From a virus, in IMG/VR virus record IMGVR_UViG_3300049927_000072, positions 11,885-75,884 of that record: 64,000 nucleotides of DNA. The stretch is one strand, 5' to 3'. Below the pieces are notes generated by a model, which ran no database searches, was not told the origin of the DNA, and saw nothing but the letters and a program-made list of their open reading frames with translations. Position 1 is the first letter of the stretch, and each line of letters starts with the position of its first letter. Shown piece by piece: positions 10,042-54,219 of this stretch. Both the position numbers and the translations under genes were made by a program.

Positions 10042-10301
10042 GCTTTCACCTTGAGCGCTTCGAGGAATTTGCAGCTGGCGACGTGATCCGCGTCCTGCCA
10101 GAAGTGGATACCGCGTTCGGCGACGCTATCATCCTTGGTTTCAATACCAATGGCGACGCCAAGCTCTCGCGGCCTTACGGCTACGCACATAATGTCGGCA
10201 CGACTGCGCCCGTGTCATTGCTTGGCAGTGAGATTTATTCGCTGCCGCTGCGAACGATCCGGGTCTTGCAGCGTGTCGAGAGCGGCGGGAGGCGCGCGTG
10301 A
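10038..10301 (+). CDS. hypothetical early protein
   Basis: ATGA overlap with the previous gene. Confidence 0.6.
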   Translation: MSFHLERFEEFAAGDVIRVLPEVDTAFGDAIILGFNTNGDAKLSRPYGYAHNVGTTAPVSLLGSEIYSLPLRTIRVLQRVESGGRRA

Positions 10302-10519
10302 GTAACCCGGCATTCCAGAAACGTCATTACGAAAAAATCGCTGAGGCAATTCAAGAGGCGCGCGGCGACGCTTGCATCCACACCGCGCAGCATCCCGAAG
10401 CGATCAACGTTGTCGTCAATGAACTGGCCGACGCCTTCGCTCGCGATAATGGACAATTCCAGCGGGGCAGGTTCATCGCGGCTTGCGAATGCGGCGCGAA
10501 CGTGAGAGCGCGGTCATGA
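10298..10519 (+). CDS. small phage protein, RH(Y/F)..IA...LA..F..DN..F...RF..AC family
   Basis: FQKRHYEKIAEAI...LADAFARDNGQFQRGRFIAAC; paralogous to the cargo of 24055..24297. Confidence 0.7.
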   Translation: MSNPAFQKRHYEKIAEAIQEARGDACIHTAQHPEAINVVVNELADAFARDNGQFQRGRFIAACECGANVRARS

Positions 10520-10818
10520 CTGATCTAAGAAACATGACGCCCGAAGAAATTGCACGTCGGCGCGCGAGCGCTTACGAAGGTCGCGCCGAAGTCGGGCGCT
10601 TCGCACGAGCCCCGGGCTTCTACTCGCCGACCGTCATGGCCGAAAACATTCCGGATTGGTGGCCGACGTTCTACTATCGGCGGCGGCACATCAAGATGGC
10701 GGGGACCGAGAGCAAGCACCCGGTGCGAACACCGGACCGCCTCGTCTTTCTCGAAGTGCTCGCCCTTTGGAGCAAGTCGGCTCCCGACGATTGGCAGTAT
10801 TGGGAATGCGGACCATGA
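10516..10818 (+). CDS. hypothetical early protein
   Basis: start MTDLRN overlaps the previous stop. Confidence 0.55.
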   Translation: MTDLRNMTPEEIARRRASAYEGRAEVGRFARAPGFYSPTVMAENIPDWWPTFYYRRRHIKMAGTESKHPVRTPDRLVFLEVLALWSKSAPDDWQYWECGP

Positions 10819-11110
10819 GCAAAATGTATCGCAAGAACCCGCTGCCGGGCCACGCTTACCACACGAAGACGGATGACGAGCTTCGCACGCTCATGTTGGC
10901 AGACGACTACGAAGCGCTCGTGATCCTGCACTGGCACATCGCGCCGCCGGGAGATTGAACCATGAGCGAACGGCTGACACGTTTTTATGTCATGTGCCCG
11001 AAGTGCGCCAAGACGAGTGAGATCGTGTGCACGACGGCGCAACCGCCTGCGGTCAACTGCGGCGACTGCCTTGTGCAGATGAAAGTCATGGGCTCGAAGG
11101 CGTTCCGCGA

Positions 11111-11374
11111 ATGATTGTCTATCGTGTCTCAGTACGCGCGGCGACGTTGCATGCTCTCACGTGGGAGCAAGAGAACCCGCAAGCGACAGCGCGGCAGAAG
11201 CTTGCGGAATTTAATTCGTACGCCGCGATAGAGCGCGAGCAATTCGAGGCGATGCTCAGCGCGGGCTTCGAGCCAAAAGATTTTCCGACGCGATTGAGCG
11301 CGACGGTTTATGCAAATACGATTGCGCTCGCGTGCGGCTTTCAGCCGGACGTGACTGAAGTGAGCGCACTATGA
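11111..11374 (+). CDS. hypothetical early protein
   Basis: start MIVYRV inside a track ORF. Confidence 0.45.
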   Translation: MIVYRVSVRAATLHALTWEQENPQATARQKLAEFNSYAAIEREQFEAMLSAGFEPKDFPTRLSATVYANTIALACGFQPDVTEVSAL

Positions 11375-11422
11375 GTGCCGTGCTCGTGACAATACGTCCC
11401 CCGTTTGACACGAGCATGACCG

Positions 11423-11460
11423 GACGGGCGGGGAGTTGCAACTTCCCGTCCGTCTTTAAT
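11423..11460 (+). terminator. hairpin, likely intrinsic terminator or processing site
   Basis: GACGGGCGGGGAGT-TGCA-ACTTCCCGTCCGTC followed by TTTAATT. Confidence 0.55.
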
Positions 11461-11481
11461 TCGGGGACATAGGAGCGCTTT

Positions 11482-11940
11482 ATGGGCACGCGATCTCTGA
11501 CAATCATTATGCACAATAATGACGAGCTTTGCCGCATCTACCGGCAGAATGACGGATACCCATCCGGCCATGGGTACGAACTCGCCGAACTTTGCGACCG
11601 ATTGATTGTCAACGGCTATAGCGGCTCAATGACGAGTGCCGCAGGCAAGAGCTATCCGCGTGAGCAGCAAGCCAACGGCATGGGTTGTCTCGCCGCATCC
11701 GTCATTGCCGGACTGAAGGATGGCATCGGCGGCACCTATATCGAAAGGACCGGCGGCGAGATCAATGATTGGTGCGAGTACATCTACATCGTGCGCGGGA
11801 AAGAGGGCGACATCCCGACTATCGAGTGCACGACGCAGACCGGCCCGTGGCCGTTCAACGCCCAAGAGATCAGCAAGCACATTTTCACACTGCCCGCCGA
11901 TCAGGTAGTCGAGTACGTCAAAAAAATCGGAGCTTTGTGA
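11482..11940 (+). CDS. conserved phage protein (MGTRS...YRQxDGYP family)
   Basis: MGTRSLT...IYRQNDGYPSGHG...NGMGCLAA...EYIYIV; AGGAG RBS. Confidence 0.75.
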   Translation: MGTRSLTIIMHNNDELCRIYRQNDGYPSGHGYELAELCDRLIVNGYSGSMTSAAGKSYPREQQANGMGCLAASVIAGLKDGIGGTYIERTGGEINDWCEYIYIVRGKEGDIPTIECTTQTGPWPFNAQEISKHIFTLPADQVVEYVKKIGAL

Positions 11941-26059: not shown

Positions 26060-26749
26060 ATGAGCCGCTCAAGCGATTTGGCGAAAGCGCCCGTGAGCTT
26101 GCGAACGCGCGAGCCGGGCAGACGATATAATCCCAAAACATTGCGGAATGTGGTCAAATGGGCGCGAGAGATGCCCGTCATTCGCGTGATATGCGAGCGC
26201 GCTCGGGTCACCCGTGCTGGTCTAGCCTACTGGATCAAGAAGAGCGCCGCGGGTGAGATTGGGTGTGGTGATGGTTTCGACGTGACTATCAATGGCGAGA
26301 CGCGCCGTTTTCACGATTGGTATTACGATGCGTTCAGCGACGGTGTTGATCGCGTCGAAGAAGCCGCATTCAAACTCGCGAACGGCACGCACATGGAAGC
26401 GCTCTCTTACCGGGGCCGCGTGAATTATCAGGAAGACCCGGACTTGCTCGCGCTCGGCTTCGAAGGGCCGGAAGCGTGGAAGCGAGACAAGAACAATCGT
26501 CCAATACCAGAGGCAATAGCAAAACTCGACCCGGATATGACGCGCTTCATTCTAAAAGCGCATCGGCCGGAACGGTACATCAATACGCAGAAAATAGATG
26601 TAACGCACAAGGGCGGCGTGCTTGTGGTCGGAACGCAAATGAAGCGCGAAGATTTCGAGAAAAAGTTTGTCGGCAAGTCCGGCACCGCAGACGTATTGGA
26701 TGTTGAGTTCGAAGTTGTACCCACTGACGCCCCAGACCCGACGGCCTGA
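26060..26749 (+). CDS. terS: terminase small subunit
   Basis: N-terminal HTH; DRVEEAAFKLA..G; FILKAHRPERY; GGVLVV; directly before terL. Confidence 0.8.
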   Translation: MSRSSDLAKAPVSLRTREPGRRYNPKTLRNVVKWAREMPVIRVICERARVTRAGLAYWIKKSAAGEIGCGDGFDVTINGETRRFHDWYYDAFSDGVDRVEEAAFKLANGTHMEALSYRGRVNYQEDPDLLALGFEGPEAWKRDKNNRPIPEAIAKLDPDMTRFILKAHRPERYINTQKIDVTHKGGVLVVGTQMKREDFEKKFVGKSGTADVLDVEFEVVPTDAPDPTA

Positions 26750-26750
26750 C

Positions 26751-28307
26751 ATGGGTGTGACCGTAGAAAAATGGCGGCTGAAGGATGGTGTGTGGCGGCC
26801 GTGGGTCCGCAACAACGAAGGCGAATTGATTGAAGCCATCTGGGCCGCGCAAGCTGGATCGCAAGACGCATTTCTCTCGTGCCCTACATTCGAAACTCTC
26901 TACTCCGGAACACGTGGACCGGGAAAAACTGACGCGCTCTTGATGGACTTCGCGCAGGATGTCGGCAAAGGCTTCGGCTCTAACTGGGTTGGCATTCTCT
27001 TCCGGCAGTCGCATCCGGCGCTGCGAGACGTGATCGAGAAGAGCAAGCGCTGGTATAAGCAAATCTGGGGCGATGCTGCGTTCTACAATGAGATCAAATT
27101 TTTCTGGGAATGGGATACCGGCGAGCGGTTGTACTTCTCGCACTTTGCGACCATCTCGGACTACGACAAGTACCACGGCCACGCGTACCCGTGGATCGGT
27201 TGGGAAGAATTGACCTCATGGGCCATGCCGGATTGCTATAAGTCTGCATTCTCACTTTGTCGCTCGCCTGTGCCGGGCATCCCGAAGAGGATACGCGCGA
27301 CGACCAACCCGCACGGTGTCGGCCACAACTGGGTCAAGGGTCGTTTCCGGATCATTACAGTATCGCCGGATAAAATCGCAGACCCTGTGATAACGGATGC
27401 GAAAGACGAACAAGGTCGGCCCGAGCCACCGCGTCAAGTAATCTTCGGCTTCCTTGAAGAAAATAAAATCCTGCTACGCGAAGACCCGGAGTATGTCACC
27501 AACCTGCGAACAGCGGCGCGAAGTGAAGCGCAACTGCAAGCGTGGCTTTACGGTTCATGGGACATCGTCGCCGGTGGCATGTTCGACGACATCTGGCACG
27601 GCTACAAGACGGACATCATCGTTGAGAATTTCCAAATACCGCCAGAGTGGCCAATCTATCGCGCGTACGATCACGGAAGCTCGAAGCCGTTTAGCGTCGG
27701 CTGGTATACGGTGAGTGATGGCTCCGATGTCATTGTCAACGGCAAGGTTCGGGCAACTGTGCCGGGCGATCTATTCCGGATCGCCGAATGGTACGGCTGG
27801 CGCGGTGTAGAAAACGAAGGCACGCGCATGCTCGTCGCAGATATCGCGCGCGGAATTATCCAGCGGGAGATCGATTGGGGATGGCGCTCACGCGACGGCA
27901 AGCACGTGCGAGTGAAACGCGGACCGGCGGACACGTCCATATTTGACGAAAACAATGGCGTATGTGTCGCGGATGATTTCGAAAAGCCTGTGTTTATCAA
28001 CGGCATCAAACATCGCGGCGTCGTATGGGAGCGCGCCGATAAAGGCCCCGGCTCACGCGTGCAAGGTTGGGAGCAAGTCCGGCGACGCTTGAAAGCAACG
28101 AAACGGCCGGACGGCGGCATCCGGGAAGTGCCGAGCCTGTTTATCGATGCCAAATGCAAACAATGGCTGCGCACTGTGCCAAATCTGCCGCGAGACGAAG
28201 ATAAGATCGATGATGTGAACACAGAGGCAGAGGATCACGTCGGGGACGAGACACGCTACATGCTGCGCTTCGAGCCAAGAACAATGAAATCGGGGCGCAC
28301 AATCTAA
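26751..28307 (+). CDS. terL: terminase large subunit
   Basis: Walker A GTRGPGKT, Walker B WIGWEE, ATTNPHGVGHNWVK, nuclease motifs YDHGSSKPF and EDHVGDETRY. Confidence 0.95.
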   Translation: MGVTVEKWRLKDGVWRPWVRNNEGELIEAIWAAQAGSQDAFLSCPTFETLYSGTRGPGKTDALLMDFAQDVGKGFGSNWVGILFRQSHPALRDVIEKSKRWYKQIWGDAAFYNEIKFFWEWDTGERLYFSHFATISDYDKYHGHAYPWIGWEELTSWAMPDCYKSAFSLCRSPVPGIPKRIRATTNPHGVGHNWVKGRFRIITVSPDKIADPVITDAKDEQGRPEPPRQVIFGFLEENKILLREDPEYVTNLRTAARSEAQLQAWLYGSWDIVAGGMFDDIWHGYKTDIIVENFQIPPEWPIYRAYDHGSSKPFSVGWYTVSDGSDVIVNGKVRATVPGDLFRIAEWYGWRGVENEGTRMLVADIARGIIQREIDWGWRSRDGKHVRVKRGPADTSIFDENNGVCVADDFEKPVFINGIKHRGVVWERADKGPGSRVQGWEQVRRRLKATKRPDGGIREVPSLFIDAKCKQWLRTVPNLPRDEDKIDDVNTEAEDHVGDETRYMLRFEPRTMKSGRTI

Positions 28308-28363
28308 AGGCCGGTTGCTAATAAAACTGGAACGTGATTTATCGCAAATTCGCGGGGGACACC

Positions 28364-30016
28364 ATGAGCCTTGAAGACAAACATCCGGAATATATCAATC
28401 GCCTAGGTGAATGGATACAAATGGGCGACACCTACGCGGGTGAGCGCGAAATAAAGCGCAAGCGCGTAGACTACCTGCCCCCATGCGAAGGAATGATTGC
28501 GGACGGCATGTCCAATCCGCAGTCTCCCGGCTGGAAAGACTACGAAGCGTATTTGATGCGGGCCGTGTATCCTGACGTGGTCAAGGATGCGGTTAAGGCG
28601 ATGGTCGGCATTATGCACATGCGACCCGCTACGATCACGCTCCCGAAAAAACTGCAAGGCATGTTCACCAAAGCCACCGCTCAGGGCGAGGGCTTGCAAA
28701 TGCTTTTGCGTCGGATCAATGAGGCGCAACTCAAAAACGGTCGCTGCGGATTGCTGGTCGAAGTGCCGACAGGCAAGGACGCGGCGAGTGCGCTCCCGTA
28801 TATCGCGTTCTACGATGCCGAACGCATCACGAATTGGGACGCTGGCCGATATGAAGAGGGCCAGAACGATTTGGAAATGGTTGTGCTCGACGAGAGCGGA
28901 CCATCGCGCAAAGGTTTCACATGGCAGACGGAGCGTAAATTTCGCGTCCTTACGCGCGGGGCTTTGAGCGCTATAAATGCCGACGGAGAATGGCGACCCA
29001 CCGATACCGACGAATACGTGGTCGCAGTGAAAATCAATGAAGTCAACACTCCGACCGCGGGCGATTTTATCACACCACAAATCGCTGGCCGCACACTGAA
29101 AAAAATTCCGTTTGTGTTTATCGGCGCAAACGATCTCGTACCAGAGCCGGAAGTCCCCCCACTAATTGGTCTCAGCAATCTAGCTCTCGCGATCTATCGT
29201 GGCGAGGCTGACTATCGTCAGACCCTGTATTATCAGGGCCAGCAAACGCTCGTTATCATCGGCGGCAACGCTGGTGACACTGACGAGCAAATTCGCACCG
29301 GCAATAAGGGCGTGATCGACCTCAAGCTTGGCGGCGATGCAAAATTCATTGGCGTTTCCGCGACTGGCCTTGGCGAGATGCGTCAAGCGGTCGAGAATGA
29401 CAAGGCCAAAGCCGACAGTATGGGCGTCGCATTCATGGATGTCGGCAATGCGCGCGGCGAGAGTGGCGAAGCTCTCCGTATTCGAGTGGCCGCACGCACC
29501 ACGACAATATCATCGACCAACCAAGCTGCGGGCGCTGGCCTCGAAGCTGCGTTGAAATTCTGCGCGGAGTGGGTCGGAGAAAATCCGGACGAAGTGAAAG
29601 TCGAAGTGCAAACCGACTTCGCGGATCAGAGTGTCGCGGGTGCTGCATTGCTTGCGTTCATGCAGGCGAAGCAACTTGGCTTGCCGCTGTCTCTCAAGTC
29701 GTTACATCGCACTATGAAGGCGAACGACTTGACCGACATGACCTTCGAAGAAGAGAGCGACCAAATCAAGGAAGAAGCCGTGACCGCGGTCGAGGATATG
29801 GCCGATCTCACGCAAGTGGCGAGCGACAATAACTTCCTTGACGAGCCAGCCGACACGACAGATGCGACGGCAGGGAATGTGAAAACCACTCCGCCCATCG
29901 CTCCCGCCGGGCTTATCAAGCCCGGCCAGAGCGTCCCGGTAACCCCGCACGCGCGCGGAACGCCAGTCCCCATGAAAGGCAAAGTCGGCAAAAAAGGTGC
30001 GTCGGCTGGAAAGTAA
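28364..30016 (+). CDS. portal protein (DUF4055 type)
   Basis: follows terL; YEAYLMRA, IPFVFIG...PPLIGLSNL, ESGEALRIR. Confidence 0.9.
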   Translation: MSLEDKHPEYINRLGEWIQMGDTYAGEREIKRKRVDYLPPCEGMIADGMSNPQSPGWKDYEAYLMRAVYPDVVKDAVKAMVGIMHMRPATITLPKKLQGMFTKATAQGEGLQMLLRRINEAQLKNGRCGLLVEVPTGKDAASALPYIAFYDAERITNWDAGRYEEGQNDLEMVVLDESGPSRKGFTWQTERKFRVLTRGALSAINADGEWRPTDTDEYVVAVKINEVNTPTAGDFITPQIAGRTLKKIPFVFIGANDLVPEPEVPPLIGLSNLALAIYRGEADYRQTLYYQGQQTLVIIGGNAGDTDEQIRTGNKGVIDLKLGGDAKFIGVSATGLGEMRQAVENDKAKADSMGVAFMDVGNARGESGEALRIRVAARTTTISSTNQAAGAGLEAALKFCAEWVGENPDEVKVEVQTDFADQSVAGAALLAFMQAKQLGLPLSLKSLHRTMKANDLTDMTFEEESDQIKEEAVTAVEDMADLTQVASDNNFLDEPADTTDATAGNVKTTPPIAPAGLIKPGQSVPVTPHARGTPVPMKGKVGKKGASAGK

Positions 30017-30022
30017 AACATC

Positions 30023-30895
30023 ATGGCCTTCGACCCGGATCAACTCCGAGACGAGCATGGCCAGTGGACGAGCGGGGGAGCTTCAACGCCTGAAAAGGCG
30101 CAAGAGCAAGCCAACCGCGTCGCCGCTGGCGCGAAGCCTATTGAGAGCCTCCCGCAAAAGCCAATCAACATAGGCGGCAAGTGGTACGTGCCGGGACCGA
30201 TAGGTTCGCTGCGCGACGCTGCATCCAAGTACATGGCTGAGAGCAAGCTCGACTACAGTCCGGTCACGAAATATGAAAAGCTCGACGAAGAGCGTGCAAC
30301 CAATATCGCGCAAGCCTTTGAAGAGATGAAAAACGATCCGACCAATCCGGAAGTGAAAGCATCCTACGAAGCAATGGCGCACGAAGTCATGGGCCAATAC
30401 CAAGCGCTCGTGGACAGTGGTGTGAAAGTCGAATGGATCAAGCCGGGCCAACCGGACCCATATGCAGCAACGCCGCGACTTGCTGCGGTGGATGTGAGCG
30501 AAAACAAGCATTGGTGGGGCTTTCCGACCGATCTCGGCTATGGCTCCGGCGATCATACGGACACAAAAGACAATCCGATGCTGCAAAAAGTCGGCATTAA
30601 AATTGACGGGCGCGATGTCGTGCTTAACGACGTGTTTCGCGTCGTGCATGATATGTATGGTCATTTCAAAGAGGGCAACGGTTTTCGCGCCGCAGGCGAA
30701 GATAACGCTTGGCGATCTCACGCCTCGATGTTTTCGGAGAAAGCTTTGCCAGCAATGACCGCGGAAACGCGCGGGCAAAATTCGTGGGTAAATTACGGGC
30801 CATACGGCTCATACAATCGCACGGCGAGCGCGGGAGACACGCATTATGCTCCGCAGAAAATCGGCATCATGCCCAAGTGGACACAGGCGCGATGA
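30023..30895 (+). CDS. putative virion/ejection protein with RDxxGxW leader and HDxxGH domain
   Basis: MAFDPDQLRDEHGQWTSGG; NDVFRVVHDMYGH...GEDNAW..H...ETRGQNSWVN. Confidence 0.65.
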   Translation: MAFDPDQLRDEHGQWTSGGASTPEKAQEQANRVAAGAKPIESLPQKPINIGGKWYVPGPIGSLRDAASKYMAESKLDYSPVTKYEKLDEERATNIAQAFEEMKNDPTNPEVKASYEAMAHEVMGQYQALVDSGVKVEWIKPGQPDPYAATPRLAAVDVSENKHWWGFPTDLGYGSGDHTDTKDNPMLQKVGIKIDGRDVVLNDVFRVVHDMYGHFKEGNGFRAAGEDNAWRSHASMFSEKALPAMTAETRGQNSWVNYGPYGSYNRTASAGDTHYAPQKIGIMPKWTQAR

Positions 30896-31242
30896 CCAAC
30901 CTAGACAACTCCGCCGCGCGCCCGAGAAAGCAAGTTCCTGAAGAGGAAGCTTGGCGCAAACATCGAGCATTGCAGCAACTGCCGCGCACAACTTTCTCTA
31001 TATCGCCGCGCGACACATCGACAGCGCGCGTCGGTCGGGCAGAAGCGTGGAAAGACGCGGTCAAGATCATTGACGCCACTGAGCCGGAAGTACGGGATAT
31101 CATCGAGCGCGGTCTTGCATTTCGTGCGGCGACGTACGGTGAACGAATGTTACAAGTCATGTCCGTTGTGGATCAGGTCGCAACTGTGCGGATCAAGGCG
31201 TTCAAAAAAGCATTTCGTCTTGTGCGAACGCGTGGTGTGTGA
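30892..31242 (+). CDS. MuF/minor head protein N-terminal-like fragment
   Basis: IIDATEPEVRDII...QVATVR..AF; position after portal. Confidence 0.45.
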   Translation: MTNLDNSAARPRKQVPEEEAWRKHRALQQLPRTTFSISPRDTSTARVGRAEAWKDAVKIIDATEPEVRDIIERGLAFRAATYGERMLQVMSVVDQVATVRIKAFKKAFRLVRTRGV

Positions 31243-31508
31243 TGGATGACATGATGCAGATGCGTCCGAAACAAATTGCGCGACTGACAGTCGCGCAGTG
31301 GGCGAAATATTTTGCAGAAAAAGATCGCACTCTTATTGACAACGCCATACGAGGCGGTGTAATAGCCGGACTTGAGAGCACTGAGATCGCGCGCAAGGTG
31401 ATCGGCAGTTTGCAACTGAACGGTCTCGACGGCGCGACTGAAAACACCCGACAGCAAATTATGAAATTAGCGAGGGTCGCCGTAGCGCGGCGTAAAAAGC
31501 GCGAATAA
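31239..31508 (+). CDS. MuF/minor head protein middle fragment (truncated)
   Basis: QWA.....DRTLIDNAIRGGVIAG.ESTEIARKVIG....G.DG...TR; C-terminal TLD.RT/Cys region absent. Confidence 0.55.
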   Translation: MMDDMMQMRPKQIARLTVAQWAKYFAEKDRTLIDNAIRGGVIAGLESTEIARKVIGSLQLNGLDGATENTRQQIMKLARVAVARRKKRE

Positions 31509-31571: not shown

Positions 31572-32432
31572 ATGGCTAAGCTGAAAACCATCTATGAGAC
31601 CGCAGAGGAAATTCCCGAAGGCTTCGCGGACTTGTTCACCGAGCGAAACGGGAAGTTCGAACTAACCGGCATCGAAAACGTCAAAACACAAGGTGACGTT
31701 GACCGAGTGGCCGAAGCTCTCCGTAAAGAAAAGGCCGATCACAAGGCCACCAAAGAGAGCCTTGTAAAATTTCACGGCATCGATCCTGAGACCGTCAATG
31801 CTCAACTCGAAGAGCTTGAGAGCACCAAGACCCAACTCGAAACCCTCACGAAAGGTGGCGCACTCGACGAGGCCAAGCTTGAGCCGATTATCGAGGCTCG
31901 CGTCAAGCGCGCTCTCGGCCCAGTCGAGCGCGAGAAAACTCAGTTGACGCGTGCGCTCGAAGTGTCGAAAAACGAAACCGTAGCTGCACGAACGGAAGTG
32001 GATAAGCTCTCTGGCGTGCTACAGTCTGGCACGATTGAGCGCGCGATCCGCGATGCAGCCATCGCCGCGAAGGTTATCAGCCCTGCCATTGAAGACGCTG
32101 TTATGCAGGGCCTTAGTGTCCTAACTGCCGCCGAAGACGGCGCGATTGTCACCAAGGACAACGTTGCGGGTGTGACCCCGGGCATCAGCGCTGCCGATTG
32201 GCTCAAGGACATGCAGGACAAGCGTCCGCATTGGTGGCCCGTCTCGCAAGGCGGCGGTTCACGCGGCGGCTCGGGCGGCGCGGTTAATCGCGCGGACAAC
32301 CCGTGGACAAAGGAAGGCTGGAACATGACCAAGCAAGGTCAGACGGTGAAAACTCTCGGCGAGGCGAAAGCGAAAGCGATGGCTGAGAGCGTCGGCAGCT
32401 ATATCGGCGCTACCAGCGCGGCGAAAGTCTGA
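31572..32432 (+). CDS. capsid scaffolding protein
   Basis: LKT.YET.EEIPEGF..LFTERNGKF, coiled coil, RPHWWP.SQGGGS, C-terminal NPW....WNMT.QG. Confidence 0.85.
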   Translation: MAKLKTIYETAEEIPEGFADLFTERNGKFELTGIENVKTQGDVDRVAEALRKEKADHKATKESLVKFHGIDPETVNAQLEELESTKTQLETLTKGGALDEAKLEPIIEARVKRALGPVEREKTQLTRALEVSKNETVAARTEVDKLSGVLQSGTIERAIRDAAIAAKVISPAIEDAVMQGLSVLTAAEDGAIVTKDNVAGVTPGISAADWLKDMQDKRPHWWPVSQGGGSRGGSGGAVNRADNPWTKEGWNMTKQGQTVKTLGEAKAKAMAESVGSYIGATSAAKV

Positions 32433-32459
32433 CCGAACTAACCGCTTGCAAAAACAATA

Positions 32460-32489
32460 GGCCCCGGATAATACCGGGGCCTTCTTTTT
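32460..32489 (+). terminator. terminator overlapping a late-promoter -10
   Basis: GGCCCCGG-ATAATA-CCGGGGCC followed by TTCTTTTT. Confidence 0.6.
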
Positions 32490-32502
32490 ACTGGGGGACG
32501 TA

Positions 32503-33099
32503 ATGGCCGACATCCTAAGCAACCCGTGGGCCGCAGACACGTGGCACCTAGGCCAGCAAGCACAGTATGAGCAGCGCTACGGCACTCCGGCGGCAGAGCG
32601 CATGGCGCGCATCGCCGGTACGAAAATCGGCGGACTGCCGAAAAAGCCTGCGGGACAGAACAAAATCTACATCATTCAAGGCAAGCGTGGACCGGCCGGG
32701 CGTGACGGTTCATCTGGCGCTGGCGCGGGCACGCACGAGTTTCTCGGCTTTTACGCCGCGGGCACATTCGGCGATGCGCAGGTATTCACGGCATCCGCAA
32801 CACCGCGCGCGACTTCATTTCCGACGATCAGCCCGCCAGATGAGAGCCGCGCAACGTGTCGCGTCGCACCGACAAGTGATGTGAGTTTTTATCTCGTCAG
32901 TGATGTTGCAGAATTTATGGGCGACGGATCGACGCTAATTTGCACAATCACGTTCGCTGCCAACTCGCTCGCCGGATCGTTTGTCTACGGCTCGCCAATA
33001 AGCGTTCCTATCGATACTGCACTTTTTATCGTGTGCCCACTCACTGCCGATCCCGCGATCACAGATGTGCAGATCGTGTTTTGTGGTGATCCGACGTGA
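32503..33099 (+). CDS. virion protein: scaffold-C-terminus-like N-domain + beta domain paralogous to 48817..49656
   Basis: NPWAADTWHLGQQAQ...AGTKIG; GPAGRDG collagen-like linker; SRATC...TITFAA. Confidence 0.7.
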   Translation: MADILSNPWAADTWHLGQQAQYEQRYGTPAAERMARIAGTKIGGLPKKPAGQNKIYIIQGKRGPAGRDGSSGAGAGTHEFLGFYAAGTFGDAQVFTASATPRATSFPTISPPDESRATCRVAPTSDVSFYLVSDVAEFMGDGSTLICTITFAANSLAGSFVYGSPISVPIDTALFIVCPLTADPAITDVQIVFCGDPT

Positions 33100-34508
33100 C
33101 AGCTTCATTCGTATCGGCCGGTGCTTTTACCAATTCCGCCGGAGCAACATCAAGCTCGCCTGCGCTGCCAGCCGGTTACACCGGGAGCGCGCTGCTTATT
33201 GCATATGTCGTCACTGCAAATGCGAAGACGATTGCTGTATCCGCCGGATGGACAAAAGGTCAAGCCGAGCCGTCCGGCGCAACTTTGCAAAAGTCATGTT
33301 GGGCGTGGCGCGTCGCCGACGGATCGGAAACGGCCTGCGTGTTCTCGTGGACGAGCAACACCGCGTGCGTATCCGGCTGTAATGCCTATACAGGCGCGCC
33401 CGCAACTTCGCCGATAGCAGGATCAGCGACCCCGGCTGACGGTACATCAAATCCGAACGTCGGTACTTATACGACAACTGTGGCAAACGCGCTGCTAGTA
33501 GAGATTGCACTTAGCCAAGCGGCGAACGTCACCATCACGGAAGCAAATACCGGCTGGTCAGCGGCAGACAGTTCTTTCAAAGCAGCATCGCGGCAATCGG
33601 TCTACACCTTCCACGACATCGTTTCAACCTCTGGTACGGTTGTCAGTTTCGGCACAGGCGACGGGACAGGTTCGCAGAAAATCGATTTCGTTGTCGAACT
33701 GAAGGCCGACCTTGTTACTGAGACTTCAACCATCGACATGACGTTCGCGGCTATGACGCAAGCGGCTACCGTGGCCGAAGCCGAACCATCGACAATCGGC
33801 ATGACCCTTGCAAACACTCTCTTGCAAGAGATCGACGCGTCGAATGATGGCCTTAATGTAACAATCGCCACGACGTTAGCGAATATCTCGCAAGAGATAG
33901 ACGCGACTGAAGTCGTGACTGGCACAGTTGACCAAACTTTTCCGGTTATGCAAGAAGAGATCGATGTGGCCGACAGCCCCGATGCCAGCATTGGGATGAC
34001 GCTCTCTGGCGCGCTGCAAGAACTGCTCATAACGACGGAGATCGTGATCGAGAGCATAGACCAGACGCTTCCGGGGGCGCTGCAAGAGTTACTAGCCGCG
34101 ACGGAAGTTGAAATAACGTCGGTAAATACAGTGCTTTTCTCGCTCTCGGATCAAGAGCTAGACGGGAGCGTCAGCGGCCCCGCTCGCATTACGCAGATAC
34201 TGCCGGGCGTACTACAAGAGGTTTTCGCGGCTACCGAGATCGAGATCACGGCGTTGGATCAAGTGCTGCCGGGTTTGATTGTCCTCGACTTCGAGGCGGA
34301 TCAATCGCCTCCGGTAGTTATAAGATCGAATATCCCGTTCGCCTTGTCGATGGATGTCGAAGCAATAATTGCTGACGACGCGCAGATCGACATGACCTTC
34401 GTGAGCATCTCTGCTCCGCCGGTGGGCATGCACGTTGACATGACGCTCGGCGGCTCGATCTCTTGCGCGAGCGGCGTGTCACGTTCCGGATGGTGGGCCG
34501 GAGAGTAA
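33096..34508 (+). CDS. Ser/Thr-rich fibre/appendage protein with ~20-aa repeats
   Basis: lectin-like N-domain; repeats of IDQTLPGALQELLAATEVEI type. Confidence 0.7.
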   Translation: MTASFVSAGAFTNSAGATSSSPALPAGYTGSALLIAYVVTANAKTIAVSAGWTKGQAEPSGATLQKSCWAWRVADGSETACVFSWTSNTACVSGCNAYTGAPATSPIAGSATPADGTSNPNVGTYTTTVANALLVEIALSQAANVTITEANTGWSAADSSFKAASRQSVYTFHDIVSTSGTVVSFGTGDGTGSQKIDFVVELKADLVTETSTIDMTFAAMTQAATVAEAEPSTIGMTLANTLLQEIDASNDGLNVTIATTLANISQEIDATEVVTGTVDQTFPVMQEEIDVADSPDASIGMTLSGALQELLITTEIVIESIDQTLPGALQELLAATEVEITSVNTVLFSLSDQELDGSVSGPARITQILPGVLQEVFAATEIEITALDQVLPGLIVLDFEADQSPPVVIRSNIPFALSMDVEAIIADDAQIDMTFVSISAPPVGMHVDMTLGGSISCASGVSRSGWWAGE

Positions 34509-34568: not shown

Positions 34569-35003
34569 ATGACAGCCGCACCACAATACAGCGAAGCCGC
34601 AGCACAGGCGGCCCTTGACGCACTTCTCGCCAAACTCAATGTCGGCGGTGCGGGCGTGATCAAAATTTTCGACGGCACCATCCCGGCCAACTGCGAAGCC
34701 GCAGATGCTGGTACCCGGCTCGCCACGTTGACGCTCAGTGCAACGGCATTCCCATCTTCAGCGACAAATGCCTCGCCGCGCGGTGCGAAAGCAACTGCAA
34801 GCGCAATTACGTCGGATACCAACGCCGCAGCCACGGGCACCGCTCAGTATTTTCGGGCCTATGATCACACTGGCACCACGTGCGTCATTCAAGGCAATTG
34901 CGGCACTTCTAGCGCCGACATGATCCTGAATACCACATCCATCGCGTCCGGCTCGACCGTCTCGTGCTCGTCGTGGACGGTAACGCTCCCGGACGGCGGC
35001 TAA
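34569..35003 (+). CDS. small virion appendage protein (paralog of 50766..51140)
   Basis: GAGVIKIFDG...LATLTL...DTNAAATGTA.YFR...ADMILNTTSI..G.TV. Confidence 0.75.
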   Translation: MTAAPQYSEAAAQAALDALLAKLNVGGAGVIKIFDGTIPANCEAADAGTRLATLTLSATAFPSSATNASPRGAKATASAITSDTNAAATGTAQYFRAYDHTGTTCVIQGNCGTSSADMILNTTSIASGSTVSCSSWTVTLPDGG

Positions 35004-35075: not shown

Positions 35076-35363
35076 ATGTACAAAGTTATTTTGGTCCTCG
35101 TGCATATAACTCTTGGGCCTGCGACTGTCGGGTCTCCGTCCGATCAAACGTTTGCGACGAAAGCAGAATGTATCGCGGGCATCTCGGGCGAAGTCGAGCG
35201 CGCTCAGATAATAATCGACACCGATATGCGTTTGGAAAAAGAAACAATGAAAGTTGTAGGCGGCCGATGTTTTTCGCTCGACGAGATCAATCAAATGTCA
35301 GGCGGCAAGAGTGCTGAAAATTTTCTTTTCAAATTGCCGGTTGCTCAGAATAATTTCGCGTGA
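35076..35363 (+). CDS. hypothetical exported protein
   Basis: start MYKVIL after AGGGGG; F.TKAEC...GRC pattern. Confidence 0.55.
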   Translation: MYKVILVLVHITLGPATVGSPSDQTFATKAECIAGISGEVERAQIIIDTDMRLEKETMKVVGGRCFSLDEINQMSGGKSAENFLFKLPVAQNNFA

Positions 35364-35505: not shown

Positions 35506-36603
35506 ATGACTACCGTCTCCACCACCATTTCTGACGTTATCGTCCCGTCAGTCTTTACGCCCTACACTCAGCAACTTACGATGGAAAAGACTGCTCTTAT
35601 CCAGAGCGGCATCGCTTCGCGCGATGATTTCCTCGACAAGCTGCTCGCGGGCGGGGGCCTGACCTTCACCGTTCCGTCATGGCAGGACATCGGCGATCCC
35701 GCCGAAAACGTGTCCAGCGATGACCCGGACACTCTCTCTACCCCGAACAAGACGCAGGCTTCGGCCGAAGTCGCGGTGCGCCTCTCGCGTAACGCCTCTT
35801 GGAGCACGATGCGTCTCGCCACGGCCCTTGCCGGTGCCGACCCGATGCAGTCAATTGCATCGCGCGTCTCCGACTACTGGGTCCGTCGCCTTCAGCGCGC
35901 CTTCGTGGCGGTTGCTAACGGCGTGTTCGCGGACAACGCTCAAGCCGATCCGACCAATGGTCGCTCTGGCAACGTCGGCCTGACTGCCGCTTATGGCACG
36001 CAGAATGACTTGACGCACTCGATCATCGGTGGCTCGTTCTCCGATGGCGTGACAAACTTCTCGGCTGCGGCGTTCATTGACACCGCAACCCTGCTCGGCG
36101 ACGCGGCCGAAGACGTGACGGCAGTTGTAATGCACTCGGTTGTTTACAGCCGTGCGCAAAAGAACAACCTGATCGACTTCATCCCGGACAGCGAAGGGAA
36201 AATCAACATCCCGACGTTCCTTGGACGGCGCGTGATCGTTGACGACGGCATGCCTAACCCGGCTGGCGACAGCGGAAACGGTGCGCAGACTGCTTCGGGC
36301 ATCTATCACACTTGGCTTGTTGGCCCGGGCGCGTTCCGCCTCGGCGTCGGCACCCCGGTTGTGCCTACCGAAGTGTTCCGCTACCCGGATCGCGGCAACG
36401 GCGCTGGATCGGACATCCTCTATAACCGTGTCGAGTGGTCTATCCACCCGGTCGGCCACGCCTACATCGGAACGCCTTCAACCGAAGGTGGCCCGACGAA
36501 CGCTTCGACGAGCAACAACCTCGCCGCTGCGGCTTCGTGGGTCCGTGTGTTCCCCGAGCGCAAGCAAATCAAGCTTGCTCGGCTAATCACTCGCGAGAGC
36601 TAG
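35506..36603 (+). CDS. major capsid protein
   Basis: TTISDVIVPSVFTPY...LAGGG..F.VPSW.D, LAGADPM.SIASRV.DYW, MHSVVY, IPTFLGRRVIVDDGMP, W.RV..RKQI. Confidence 0.95.
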   Translation: MTTVSTTISDVIVPSVFTPYTQQLTMEKTALIQSGIASRDDFLDKLLAGGGLTFTVPSWQDIGDPAENVSSDDPDTLSTPNKTQASAEVAVRLSRNASWSTMRLATALAGADPMQSIASRVSDYWVRRLQRAFVAVANGVFADNAQADPTNGRSGNVGLTAAYGTQNDLTHSIIGGSFSDGVTNFSAAAFIDTATLLGDAAEDVTAVVMHSVVYSRAQKNNLIDFIPDSEGKINIPTFLGRRVIVDDGMPNPAGDSGNGAQTASGIYHTWLVGPGAFRLGVGTPVVPTEVFRYPDRGNGAGSDILYNRVEWSIHPVGHAYIGTPSTEGGPTNASTSNNLAAAASWVRVFPERKQIKLARLITRES

Positions 36604-51144: not shown

Positions 51145-52011
51145 GTGATGTTGAAAGTCCCCGCCGTCACGCTCGTCATAGCCGAGACGCGAGCTTATGA
51201 GCTTGCCGCGCGCGCGATCAACGATCTCGTGAGCCGCGTGCAATTCGGCGACATCCTGATTTATTCTGACGATTGCTGGCGCATCGACGTGCCGGGTGCA
51301 CGTTACATTCATGTCAAGGATTGGGGTGACAAGATTGCTTCCGGCCGCTTTTACTATACTGAGGCGGCGACGAAGATCAAAACCTCACACGCGCTGCTCA
51401 TGGAATGGGATGCTGGCCTCAACGATCCGAGCGCGTGGGATGACGAGTTTCTCAGCTATGATTGCGTCGGAGCACCGTGGCGCGGCGAACATCCAAATCT
51501 GACAGGCGGGCGCAACGTTGGCAATGGCGGTTTCATGCTTCTGTCGAAACGCCTAATCGATTTCCTCTACCAAAAACGCGATAAATACCTGATCGCGACC
51601 GACGTGCATCTCTGTTGCGAGCATCGCCGCCAAATCGAGGCCGAAGGGGCCTTCCTATGGGCGAGAGCCGATGTTGCCGAGAGATTTTCTTATGAAGGCT
51701 GGCATTGGGTGGAGAACAAAATCACGCTTAAAGAACGTCCGCGCAGTTTTGGCTTTCATGGTGTCTTTAACTGGCCTTACATGCTCTCAAGAGCAGAATT
51801 GCTCACGCGCCGTGACATGCTCGTTGCTAACGAGTTTACGCGGCGGACCAAGCTTGATTTGCTCTTGAAATACGCGCCGGAGCTTCGCGCCACTTTACCG
51901 GCGATGCAACGTCCACTCAATCCAATTGACAAGGCGCGGCAAGCTCGTGCTCGCCAGCGCACGGATGCAATGCGCGTATACCGCGGCGGCAACAGAGGAT
52001 TGAAAGCATGA
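51145..52011 (+). CDS. DUF5672-like putative glycosyltransferase
   Basis: TSHALLMEWDA..ND...W.DEFL.YD.VGAPW...VGNGGF.L.S...FGFHG. Confidence 0.75.
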   Translation: MMLKVPAVTLVIAETRAYELAARAINDLVSRVQFGDILIYSDDCWRIDVPGARYIHVKDWGDKIASGRFYYTEAATKIKTSHALLMEWDAGLNDPSAWDDEFLSYDCVGAPWRGEHPNLTGGRNVGNGGFMLLSKRLIDFLYQKRDKYLIATDVHLCCEHRRQIEAEGAFLWARADVAERFSYEGWHWVENKITLKERPRSFGFHGVFNWPYMLSRAELLTRRDMLVANEFTRRTKLDLLLKYAPELRATLPAMQRPLNPIDKARQARARQRTDAMRVYRGGNRGLKA

Positions 52012-52844
52012 ACCCTGACACTCGCATATCTGTGCACTGCTACGAAGGCGACGCGCACCAAGTGGTATCGGCGCTCGGTCTCTACACGCATCATCAATGT
52101 CCAGTGACTGTGATTTCGCCGATTGATAGCCCCGTCACTATTGACGGTGTTGACTGTAGGTTTGCTGGCGTGCGCGAGGGAAGCACAGGTAGGTGGGCGG
52201 CAGATTTCAATCAAGAAGGCTCCAATCGCATCGTAACCGGCGGCCCGATTGCGAACGCGCGGCAGATTGCGCAGATGAAAAAGCTTCTGGAATGCCCGGA
52301 AAACTTTTTCCTTATGAACGACAGCGACAGCATGTGTCTCGATGCGAAAATTCCGGACTACCTCTACGCAGAACCGGACATCGTATGGTCTAATCTCGTG
52401 CACGATCCGATGCCAATAAATCAGCCGGGATACCCGCACGGCTTTCCACGGCTCGCTTTACAGCCGCCTTATTTCCTGTCGCGCCGGACTATCGGAGCGA
52501 TGATCTCTGTAGCTCACAAAGTAGTCACAAATTCTATCATGCCGTGGATTGACCATTATATGTTGCAACTCGCGGTCGAGGCGAAGCTCGTATGGAAAGG
52601 TTTCCCCGACGGAGTGTCTACTGATCTCCGTCATCCGGGACACTTGGAGTGGGCGCAGGTACAAGTCCGACACCTTGGCCGCATCATGCTCCACTCCGCG
52701 AAGAGCACCGAAGACTGGGGGCCACTCGTCCACGCGCATAATCAATTCGTCGCGGACTACCGCGGCGCTGGTGATCACCGGCTAAACCCTGACACGAACA
52801 CTACAGCTGATATCGCGCCTCCGGGAAAATGGAGACGAGGATGA
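52008..52844 (+). CDS. putative glycosyltransferase-like protein
   Basis: FFLMNDSDS (DxD-like motif), QPPYF; context. Confidence 0.45.
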   Translation: MNPDTRISVHCYEGDAHQVVSALGLYTHHQCPVTVISPIDSPVTIDGVDCRFAGVREGSTGRWAADFNQEGSNRIVTGGPIANARQIAQMKKLLECPENFFLMNDSDSMCLDAKIPDYLYAEPDIVWSNLVHDPMPINQPGYPHGFPRLALQPPYFLSRRTIGAMISVAHKVVTNSIMPWIDHYMLQLAVEAKLVWKGFPDGVSTDLRHPGHLEWAQVQVRHLGRIMLHSAKSTEDWGPLVHAHNQFVADYRGAGDHRLNPDTNTTADIAPPGKWRRG

Positions 52845-53257
52845 GCGCTCGACAGTACCTGCCAACACTCAGCGAGCTTGTGGATCGGCTGTCCATTGTA
52901 CAGCTTAAAATGATTTTCATTCCAGAGCATGCCACCGAGTACGGCAAAGAGCGTGCAATGATTGAGCACGACATCGACTTAATACTGTCAGAGATCGGCA
53001 AGCTCGACGCACGAGCCGTCCGCGCCATTCTCGTTATCATGCTCGCCAACCGCTTCATATGGGAAAACGAGAGCAAGGCTCGCGCTGGTGGCACCGAACA
53101 GGACAAAGTCCTGAAGCTCACGCACTCGATCAACGGTATCCGCAATCTCGCAAAAAATGTTCTCGCTGAGACTGAAGGTGGCCGCAAAGACTACAAGCTC
53201 GATTGTCTTGCATCGGAGATGGATGCGGACACTGGAAACTGGAAAGGGATTTTCTAG
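52841..53257 (+). CDS. DUF6165-like helical protein
   Basis: SELVDRLSIVQLK...N..IW..E...R...N..R...KN. Confidence 0.6.
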   Translation: MSARQYLPTLSELVDRLSIVQLKMIFIPEHATEYGKERAMIEHDIDLILSEIGKLDARAVRAILVIMLANRFIWENESKARAGGTEQDKVLKLTHSINGIRNLAKNVLAETEGGRKDYKLDCLASEMDADTGNWKGIF

Positions 53258-53277
53258 TTTATCGACGGGGGCAACTT

Positions 53278-54219
53278 ATGAAAAAATCAGATACTATTCT
53301 TGTCACCGGGGCAAACGGCCTCGTCGGTTCAGCCGTAGTCGAGCATTTGACTGCGCTTGGCTATTCGAATGTGCTCAGCGTATCGCGTGAGAATTGTGAT
53401 CTCCGGGATGCAGAAAAAACCCTAACTGTGTTCAAGATCGCGCGGCCTAAGTATGTCTTTCATGCGGCTGCGCGGGTGCACGGCATCCTCGGCAACATGA
53501 ACCATCAAGCGCAATCGTATCTCGAAAATACCCAGATAAGTTGCAGCGTAGTTGACGCGGCGGCAAAATGCGGTGTTGAGAAAATCGTCGTCATGGGCAC
53601 TGGCGCGGTCTACCCGTTCCCTCACACATTCATGCACGATAGCCGCTTCCCGATGCGCGAGGAAATGATTTTCAACGGACGGCCGCACCCGAGCGAGAGC
53701 GGCTACGCCCACGCGAAGCGCGGCACGCTGGCAATGCTCGAAGCCTATGAAACAACCTACGGTCTCGACTGGGCTTACATCGTCTCGTGCAATCTGTTCG
53801 GACCGCGCGACAAGTTTGACATGATCAACGGCCATATCGTGCCTTCACTCATTGCGAAATTCTATAACGCCTTCCTGTCGGATGACCCTGTCACGGTCTG
53901 GGGCGATGGGTCGGCGCAGCGCGACTTCCTGTACGTCAAGGATGTCGCACGCGCCGTGCATCTCGTTTTACAAAACGGCGGTGGTGCGATCAACATGGGC
54001 GGCGGCCTCATTTATAGCATCCGCAGCATTGTCGAGATGCTCATAGATTTCACCGGCTGCCCGAGCGAGCGCATTGAGTGGGACGCAAGCAAGCCGAACG
54101 GGCAAGCCTATCGTGCCTACGATCTCACGCAAATAAAAGCCCTCGGTTTCCGGCCGATCTATAGCATTGAAGACGGGCTTCGTGAGACTTGGGACTGGTA
54201 TACGCGAAACCCACGGTAG
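53278..54219 (+). CDS. fcl: GDP-L-fucose synthase-like NDP-sugar epimerase/reductase
   Basis: VTGANGLVGS, VFHAAARV.GI..N, GYAHAKR (YxxxK), NLFGP.D.F...H..P.LI.KF, VWGDGS..RDFLY. Confidence 0.8.
   Translation: MKKSDTILVTGANGLVGSAVVEHLTALGYSNVLSVSRENCDLRDAEKTLTVFKIARPKYVFHAAARVHGILGNMNHQAQSYLENTQISCSVVDAAAKCGVEKIVVMGTGAVYPFPHTFMHDSRFPMREEMIFNGRPHPSESGYAHAKRGTLAMLEAYETTYGLDWAYIVSCNLFGPRDKFDMINGHIVPSLIAKFYNAFLSDDPVTVWGDGSAQRDFLYVKDVARAVHLVLQNGGGAINMGGGLIYSIRSIVEMLIDFTGCPSERIEWDASKPNGQAYRAYDLTQIKALGFRPIYSIEDGLRETWDWYTRNPR

Follow-up and report, generated by a model that had tools for sequence, protein, structure and literature searches.

We describe a module of a phage head scaffolding protein that recurs at the start of a fibre-like protein. 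The DNA analysed, called the window below, is a stretch of 64,000 nucleotides from a virus (IMG/VR record IMGVR_UViG_3300049927_000072, positions 11,885 to 75,884). It carries the head module of an SPP1-like siphophage, in which three genes (ORF198, ORF470, and ORF144; ORF, open reading frame) form a cassette between the genes for the scaffolding protein and the major capsid protein. ORF198 begins with a homologue of the scaffold C-terminus, here called the NPW module, which on the available sequences is an old and mobile unit of ca. 45 residues with two predicted helices. A linker, GXY triplets, and a jelly-roll domain follow, and the protein is proposed to be a head-fibre base or adaptor. 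On balance, we lean towards the interpretation that ORF198 sits at the base of a head-mounted fibre, which is anchored to the capsid by the scaffold-derived module. The coordinates of all features are given in Table 1.

Homology between the scaffold C-terminus and the ORF198 N-terminus

A gapless alignment between the end of the scaffold and the start of the next gene had been reported in the original prediction, and this was confirmed. In a single BLASTP comparison, scaffold residues 243–279 match ORF198 residues 7–43 with 13 of 37 positions identical and 20 positive (E 8e-6). A non-circular hidden Markov model (HMM) was then built from 46 unique scaffold C-terminal modules, to which neither the window nor its nearest relative contributed, and was searched against all 638 six-frame ORFs of the window. 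The scaffold (E 8.5e-22) and ORF198 (residues 7–45, E 1.2e-11) were retrieved, the next best ORF having an E-value of 0.25. The reciprocal profile, which was made only from N-terminal copies of the module (called anchors below), scored the scaffold at E 1.6e-13 and ORF198 at E 1.9e-14.

The module profile reads NP[WF]-x4-[WF]-N-x-T-x-Q-G ... A-x3-A-x2-A-G-x3-G. Within the scaffold family, positions N243, P244, W250, Q255, A267, A271, and G275 are invariant. The positions which are invariant in five ORF198-type proteins (N7, P8, W14, Q19, A35, and G39) all belong to this set, while ORF198 has H15, G17, and A20 where the motif has N, T, and G. The scaffolds of phages RDJL3, NP1, PhiJL001, and Vid5 and of a Vibrio and a Klebsiella phage have a common C-terminal layout, with a PHWWP motif, a Gly-rich linker, the NPW module, and a short P/K-rich tail. 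The C-terminus of SPP1 gp11 is a shorter version of the module. The Pfam model PF06810 spans only residues 4–171 of gp11, so that the NPW module lies outside of it. PDB chain sequences, searched with the scaffold profile and the module profile, returned only noise.

The motif had previously been described as duplicated. The peptides are homologous indeed, but the ORF198 module is not a recent copy of the neighbouring gene. The two module-coding stretches of the window have 53% of their bases and 49% of their third codon positions in common. The ORF198 module shows 33% sequence identity to the module of its own scaffold and a mean of 36% to foreign modules, with 39 of 60 foreign scaffold modules being nearer to it. 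The low DNA identity, together with the absence of excess similarity to the cognate scaffold, rules out a recent local or tandem duplication, and the third-position identity indicates a long retention of the module. In a tree of 65 modules, anchors cluster with two label changes, and none of 500 label shuffles reached so low a number. A single anchor clade is not rejected (p-value of the approximately unbiased test, p-AU, 0.49; the tree has 44 columns and limited resolution). These sequences suggest that the scaffold end was recruited long ago, once or a few times, and then spread together with the cassettes.

The N-terminal similarity might instead be a functionless recombination scar, a 3′ piece of the scaffold gene dragged along by an inserted fibre cassette. 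The cassette begins exactly at the 3′ end of the scaffold gene, and relatives lacking the cassette exist. In addition, the anchor module of L008, a related locus introduced below, is unusually near to that of its own scaffold (53% identical, with 1 of 60 foreign modules closer). We nevertheless consider this explanation very improbable. Across dozens of 50%-identity clusters, the N-terminal copies show no variation at the motif positions which are invariant in scaffolds, and an intact start codon is found just ahead of NPW in every copy. The clustering of anchors on the tree and the long retention of the module also argue against a scar. The available sequences thus support the view that the module is functional and under selection in its N-terminal setting.

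Architecture and predicted fold of ORF198

Residues 7–76 of ORF198 (module 7–43, linker 44–54, hydrophobic strand IYIIQ 55–59, and GXY triplets 60–76) align with 32 other anchor proteins, and ORF198 has the layout of this subfamily: a module within the first ca. 50 residues, a P/K-rich linker, an h-h-I-Q-K strand which is conserved among anchors, and a stretch rich in Gly or made of GXY triplets. Scaffolds likewise have a P/K-rich tail after the module. A Pfam search with ORF198 gave no match. Longer GXY runs are found in relatives, where the Pfam Collagen model matches P0134 (E 2.2e-5) and the C-domain fibre protein P0100 (E 9.1e-10).

The AlphaFold2 model of ORF198, which was computed from 80 aligned sequences, has a mean predicted local distance difference test (pLDDT) value of 85.7. 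It shows a predicted helix hairpin in the module (helices 16–26 and 28–37; pLDDT of the block 83–93), disorder at ca. 45–75, and a beta-sandwich at 79–197 (pLDDT above 93). The C-terminal domain superposes on residues 470–582 of chain M of PDB 9rkv, a tail fibre of phage 7-7-1 (Z 11.8; root mean square deviation, rmsd, 2.6 Å over 110 residues), with the next structural match at Z 7.4. Foldseek gave E 3.4e-4 at a probability of 1.00 and rmsd values of 2.2–3.3 Å. Lower rows (Z 6–7) contain TNF/C1q-like heads, BclA, and capsid cement jelly-rolls and reflect only a common fold. Matches in BFVD are phage tail-fibre and collagen-repeat proteins. The domain had been taken for fibre-base-like; it instead resembles the distal knob of a trimeric tail fibre.

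The module is N-terminal in ORF198 and the remainder is not scaffold-like. ORF198 is thus a module carrier and not a scaffolding protein. Because of the GXY triplets and the likeness of the C-domain to a trimeric tail-fibre knob, ORF198 probably forms a trimer.

Fibre cassettes between the scaffold and capsid genes

A search for loci related to that of ORF198 (alignment A1) retrieved a single 2-kb metagenome contig, L008, and nothing among viral and genome contigs. Eighty IMG/VR loci were fetched via their capsid protein and scanned with the module HMM. A total of 50 distinct scaffold-to-capsid intervals was compared: 42 from IMG/VR loci (three identical pairs being counted once each), six from reference phages, and those of the window and of L008. 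Inserted genes occur in 17 of the 50 intervals and cover 1.4–6.6 kb (the insert of L008 ends at the contig end). An ORF with an N-terminal module is present in 16 of these 17 inserts, usually as the first gene after the scaffold, the exception being L040. In the other 33 intervals, the gap is at most ca. 480 nt, or up to 0.9 kb in three loci which hold only small unannotated ORFs; L073, with two unannotated ORFs and no module, was counted among the 33. In deposited relatives, the capsid gene starts 11–180 nt after the scaffold gene. Close relatives of the window (capsid protein at least 80% identical) have either a gap of ca. 110–480 nt or inserted genes, so that the insert is present or absent among phages with capsid proteins 80–89% identical to that of the window.

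The position of ORF198, after the scaffold, before the capsid gene and ahead of fibre-like genes, is the same in L008 and in 14 distinct IMG/VR cassettes, and L008 keeps the order of scaffold, ORF198-type, and ORF470-type gene. Five loci (L010, L011, L022, L026, and L030) carry four-gene cassettes, which consist of a small anchor (ca. 80–130 aa), a C-domain protein (ca. 154–160 aa), a large protein, and an ORF144 homologue. As read from this gene order, ORF198 of the window and its L008 counterpart are fusions of the small anchor with the C-domain protein. Elsewhere, the anchor is directly followed by proteins of 430–925 aa, with the next start abutting or overlapping the anchor stop, and in L018 the anchor is fused to a 1294-aa protein.

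Pfam detected long Collagen repeats in cassette proteins (E 2.8e-59, 1.3e-51, 1.7e-13, and 1.6e-16), some of them covering hundreds of residues, as well as a CBM_5_12 carbohydrate-binding module, beta-propeller repeats, and GT1 glycosyltransferases. Matches in PHROGs are to collagen-like tail-fibre and minor-tail families. Neither Pfam nor PHROGs identified an enzyme of the kinds known among ejected proteins. From these domains we infer that the cassette proteins are parts of external fibres, with a putative role in adsorption.

If the module were an encapsidation signal, ORF198 and its partners would be internal or ejected proteins, as in the case of CpmB, of T4 capsid-targeting sequences, or of encapsulin cargo-loading peptides. 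The homologous module does belong to an internal scaffold, and there is a precedent for a common scaffold end that targets proteins to the capsid interior (PMC5644958). We consider it improbable, however, since the proteins behind the module are fibre-like (collagen repeats, carbohydrate-binding module, beta-propeller, and trimeric tail-fibre knob, with adjoining glycosyltransferases), since a paralogous cassette is located at the tail tip (see below), and since Pfam and PHROGs revealed no enzymes of the ejected type in the cassettes.

Most proteins encoded after anchors begin with a common motif, GDFYID..D.W.....G.W..KG (examples are L010 3736–4200, L013 3361–5634, L027 685–2652, L038 4754–6778, L042 4339–6159, and L025 3410–6187). 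In L052, a motif of this type is fused to the anchor itself. Such an N-terminus may be a plug for the Gly-rich tail of the anchor, so that anchor and fibre would form a plug-and-socket pair. GT1 glycosyltransferases are encoded inside the head cassette at L013 5680–6816 and L052 4912–6204. In L080, the capsid protein of which is 57% identical to that of the window, a module-bearing fibre gene (10283–11587) is located ca. 2.2 kb downstream of the capsid gene. Its module is at residues 40–81 of the listed ORF, which resembles P0129 (see below).

Spread of the module

Only four close homologues of ORF198 (54–72% identical) were found among 5.8 billion proteins. A profile search of 1.84 billion representatives gave 219 matches, and the classes given here were read by eye from 150 of these and from fetched sequences. 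Among the 150 matches listed are ca. 35 clusters of small proteins (46–140 aa) in which an N-terminal module is followed by Gly-rich or GXY stretches, five long proteins starting with the module (one copy in those of 299, 357, and 400 aa and two in those of 748 and 929 aa), and ca. 12 scaffolds of ca. 270–430 aa which end in it. The matches listed include full-length relatives carrying both the module and the C-domain. They also include the C-domain behind other N-terminal regions, in one case that of a collagen-rich fibre protein. In P0129, P0082, and P0084, the module is fused ahead of domains which, by eye, resemble the N-domain of ORF470.

Six scaffold-like proteins of 155–275 aa (P0054, P0058, P0062, P0087, P0089, and P0077) have NPW modules in tandem, two or three per protein, with P/T-rich linkers between them; scaffolds with multivalent ends thus exist. 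Some mini-ORFs contain little beyond the module (P0083, 48 aa; P0145, 46 aa; P0096, 66 aa; L051 6499–6714). The last of these is located where only a short gap separates the scaffold and capsid genes, and the wider A3 profile was the only one to match it (E 8e-9). Such mini-ORFs may have been left behind when cassettes were lost, or they may compete with the scaffold end as free modules.

Possible binding of the module to the capsid protein

The following arrangement would account for the observations. Each ORF198 chain would start with a two-helix module of ca. 45 residues, descended from the C-terminal module of an SPP1-type scaffold. This module would recognise the major capsid protein and so fix the fibre to the shell. 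A basic Pro-rich tether and a short GXY stalk would lead to the jelly-roll knob, where the co-translated partners ORF470 (globular head and repeats) and ORF144 would join. The capsid proteins of the lineage must all recognise the scaffold module, and therefore a fibre with the same module should fit any such capsid. This in turn would explain why the scaffold-capsid gap is a hot spot for the swapping of fibre cassettes.

Complex prediction was performed for the capsid protein (32-row alignment) together with ORF198 residues 1–55 (33-row alignment). The interface score ipSAE (interaction prediction score from aligned errors) was 0.46, 0.42, and 0.46, while the highest value among three controls was 0.00. 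At least 91% of contacts are common to the runs, and the pLDDT of the partner is at least 77. Of 80 solved complexes, 58 passed the ipSAE mark, as did 2 of 110 mismatched pairs; just 7 of the 80 solved complexes and both of these mismatched pairs did so with a value of 0.60 or less. The prediction thus gives weak support to binding between the module and the capsid protein. The original prediction had proposed a fibre protein with a borrowed coat-binding module. The homology and the fibre-like character of the protein, encoded in a fibre cassette of the head module, agree with this, while the binding itself is backed by an ipSAE of only 0.46.

Several points weigh against our interpretation. 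The complex score falls into the weak band, and the prediction came with no reported interface. It had been argued that scaffold C-termini bind coat protein. This holds for P22 and for 80alpha, where the last 16–21 scaffold residues bind the N-arm of the capsid protein and are copied by CpmB (PMC5644958), but is not established for the scaffold family considered here: in the low-resolution fit for SPP1, the N-terminal hook of gp11, and not its C-terminus, is placed on the capsid protein gp13 (PMC6813328). Because the fit assigns this contact to the N-terminus, the role of the C-terminal module in the scaffolds is itself unproven. Cognate co-variation, which would signal a shared partner, was absent: in 17 distinct anchor-scaffold pairs, the anchor module is 44.8% identical to the module of its own scaffold and 42.7% to foreign ones (Wilcoxon p 0.16), with the pair of the window lying below the average, a test which is uninformative because the capsid proteins are so conserved. 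When 50,697 deposited phage records were searched by tblastn, the 81-residue anchor matched scaffold ends only and no anchor-type gene, and neither ORF198 nor ORF470 had a match; the evidence therefore comes entirely from uncultivated phages. Finally, scaffolds act at the inner face of the shell, and this conflicts with collagen-like and carbohydrate-binding fibres on the outside. The external nature of the cassette proteins also conflicts with the attachment to the procapsid that had been envisaged, if this is to take place in its interior.

Three options may be considered for this conflict. The epitope may be reachable from outside after expansion, the short basic tether may pass through the shell or a pore, or the module may have a partner other than the capsid protein. 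The first option leads to the more specific proposal, which we regard as rather doubtful, that one epitope of the capsid protein is read twice, by the scaffold module inside the procapsid and by the fibre-anchor module outside after expansion. The N-arm would be an example of such an epitope. In SPP1, the scaffold-contacting N-terminal helix of the capsid protein unfolds and the N-arm moves outwards (PMC6813328), so that it might be reached once the scaffold has left and the shell has expanded. If true, every capsid of the lineage would carry a universal socket; this would account for the hypervariability and the free exchange of the head-fibre locus that lies between the scaffold and capsid genes, and it would name the molecular anchor for capsid fibres.

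With another partner, which might be the module of the scaffold itself (homotypic docking), the portal, or a host chaperone, the module would dock or oligomerise such that ORF198 joins an assembly intermediate or has its place at the neck and not on the shell. The SPP1 fit would leave the C-terminal module free for such a role, the tandem copies in scaffold-like proteins suit any multivalent interaction, and the lack of co-variation is in line with it. We consider it unlikely. The weak in silico pass was obtained with the capsid protein, the C-terminal end of the scaffold is the capsid-binding part in 80alpha and P22, and no permanent fibre could be held by a partner that departs together with the scaffold.

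Comparison with known systems

The closest precedent for the use of a scaffold end in a second protein is found in the system of phage 80alpha and SaPI1, where CpmB carries a homologue of the terminal capsid-binding element of the scaffold gp46. Both bind the same site on the capsid N-arm, have interchangeable ends, and share a C-terminal helix-and-hook with an RIIK motif (PMC5644958). CpmB is a satellite-encoded internal scaffold of 72 residues, is helical, and changes the capsid size. Its motif is C-terminal and has 16–21 residues, whereas the module of ORF198 has ca. 45 residues and another sequence, is N-terminal and phage-encoded, and heads fibre proteins. ORF198, with its beta-sandwich knob, GXY triplets, and fibre-like cassette partners, is not an alternative internal scaffold of the CpmB type, a small all-helical dimer which touches the capsid only by its scaffold-like end.

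In SPP1, which has a homologous capsid protein, gene 12 codes for a collagen-like capsid decoration protein and is located between scaffold gene 11 and capsid gene 13. Its product is small and is reported to bind as a trimer to sites which are uncovered by capsid expansion (PMC6316719). As read from NC_004166, gp12 has a GXY core but is devoid of an NPW module, a knob domain, and partner genes. A sequence relationship between ORF198 and gp12 was not found; they have only the locus and the GXY character in common.

In Agrobacterium phage 7-7-1 (PDB 9rkv), gp015 is a trimeric long tail fibre with a C-terminal "triple jelly roll" at residues 473–587 (PMC12796354), and it is this part which superposes on the C-domain of ORF198. 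In contrast to ORF198, gp015 is a baseplate-anchored fibre of 570 residues with a beta-helical shaft, and sequence identity is 17%. The proteins of the 7-7-1 capsid fibres have yet to be identified (PMC12796354). P22 gp8 resembles ORF198 in that its C-terminus is a two-helix hairpin, a helix-turn-helix which binds coat protein (PMC6813328, PMC5644958); the ORF198 module is likewise predicted as helix-turn-helix, but no sequence relationship of gp8 to the NPW module was found. Bacillus anthracis BclA follows the same three-part order, with an N-terminal targeting region, a collagen-like GXY stalk, and a jelly-roll trimer (C1q-like knob) at its C-terminus. BclA differs in being located on the surface of bacterial spores, the fold match (1wck, Z 5.9) is weak and within the chance range of a common fold, and no sequence relationship is seen.

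Two elements are thus already known: CpmB has a scaffold end in common with a scaffolding protein, and SPP1 gp12 is a collagen-like capsid protein whose gene lies between those for scaffold and capsid. In the literature, we found no description of the NPW module as a named unit, of its N-terminal use on fibre proteins, or of the cassette hot spot. Capsid fibres and decoration proteins aid host finding, but in few cases is it known how they are attached to the shell, and often the proteins themselves have not been identified. The occurrence of a scaffold-derived module at the head of swappable fibre genes suggests a reusable way to hang fibres on a phage head. If the module is a general head-fibre anchor, it would provide a sequence signature for head-fibre genes in metagenomes, would explain the recombination hot spot between scaffold and capsid genes, and would be a ready-made tag for the display of foreign domains on SPP1-like capsids. 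The module also bears on the question of which scaffold end touches the capsid protein in SPP1-type assembly.

The partner genes and a paralogous cassette at the tail tip

The GTG start codon of ORF470 overlaps the stop codon of ORF198 (GTGA). ORF470 had no match in Pfam, PHROGs, or the phage database. By eye, its N-domain is similar to the products of the third or fourth gene in L010, L022, L030, and L008. Tandem Repeats Finder detected no repeats at the DNA level in ORF470. ORF144 homologues are encoded just upstream of the capsid gene in the five loci with four-gene cassettes. The only deposited relatives of ORF144 are gene 24 of Charlie-like Mycobacterium phages, two Caulobacter records, one Pseudanabaena record, and one Vibrio record.

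The window encodes counterparts of all three cassette proteins at the tail tip (Table 1). The 279-aa tail-tip protein has the same C-terminal jelly-roll as ORF198; hhalign of the C-domain profile (A3) gave a probability of 94.9% and E 4.5e-8 over 108 columns. The kinship is visible only by profile comparison, the BLASTP match to ORF198 being not significant (E 0.21). The C-terminus of the protein matches tail-fibre PHROGs 7049 and 11660. The 357-aa protein has a weak SPRY match, and the 124-aa protein is 30% identical to ORF144 over 134 columns (E 0.021). The first genes of the head and tail-tip cassettes differ mainly in their N-terminal part, which fits with the N-terminal region setting the site where a fibre is mounted.

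Directly after the tail-tip cassette (51145–54219) come sugar-related genes, one for an NAD-dependent epimerase/dehydratase (PF01370, E 7e-50) and one for a DUF5672 protein (E 1.7e-10). The fibres may be glycosylated.

Gene order around the scaffold gene

The scaffold of the window is 37–46% identical to those of RDJL3, NP1, PhiJL001, and the Vibrio and Klebsiella phages, and the capsid protein matches the SPP1 gp13 structures PDB 4an5 and 6r3a (E ca. 1e-53).

Table 1. Features of the window with their positions, strand, and the basis of assignment.
Feature	Position	Strand	Basis or remark
Large terminase	26667–28307		upstream of portal
Portal	28334–30016
290-aa protein and 89-aa ORF (fragment of head-morphogenesis gene)			between portal and scaffold genes
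Head scaffolding protein gene, 286 aa	31572..32432	+	phrog_206, E 4.6e-36
Gly-rich flexible linker preceding the module, ca. residues 225–242 of the scaffold	32244..32297	+	G-rich stretch after PHWWP motif, conserved in scaffold alignment
Scaffold C-terminal NPW module, residues 243–285	32298..32426	+	module HMM, E 4.1e-21
Terminator-like hairpin, 9 bp (8 G-C) and T-run	32459..32490	+	consensus scan
ORF198, 198 aa	32503..33099	+	ORF; GGGGGA Shine-Dalgarno-like sequence upstream
N-terminal NPW module of ORF198, residues 7–43	32521..32631	+	BLASTP, scaffold-only profile
Basic Pro-rich linker and short hydrophobic strand (IYIIQ), residues 44–59	32632..32679	+	low pLDDT at 51–54
Short collagen-like stretch, 4–5 GXY triplets, residues 60–76	32680..32730	+	read from sequence
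C-terminal jelly-roll domain, residues 78–198	32734..33096	+	pLDDT >93
ORF470	33096..34508	+	second cassette gene; globular N-terminal domain, then degenerate repeats
ORF144	34569..35003	+	third cassette gene; phrog_3758 "virion structural protein", E 4.9e-31
Major capsid protein, 365 aa, SPP1 gp13-like	35506..36603	+	phrog_247, E 3.4e-103; PF20036
Tail-tip paralogue of ORF198, 279 aa	48817..49656	+	same C-terminal jelly-roll, different N-terminal region
Tail-tip counterpart of ORF470, 357 aa	49664..50737	+	20-residue junction 75% identical to ORF470, E 4e-5
Tail-tip counterpart of ORF144, 124 aa	50766..51140	+	phrog_3758, E 3.4e-11

In NP1, RDJL3, and PhiJL001, one morphogenesis gene (MuF or SPP1 gp7-like, ca. 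340–400 aa) is found between the portal and scaffold genes. In the window, this region (30023–31508) codes for a 290-aa protein assigned to phrog_3170 (E 2.6e-15) and an 89-aa ORF which matches only positions 140–206 of the 679 positions of the head-morphogenesis profile phrog_241. The morphogenesis gene thus looks replaced or split.

The cassette is not distinct in base composition (GC content 0.54–0.60, compared to 0.53–0.62 in the flanks). The hairpin between the scaffold stop and the ORF198 start has an RNA fold energy of −26.1 kcal/mol (z −3.4), and hairpin and T-run are legible on either strand. A weak promoter-like site is found at 35326–35354, ahead of the capsid gene. The expression level of the cassette may be below that of the neighbouring genes.

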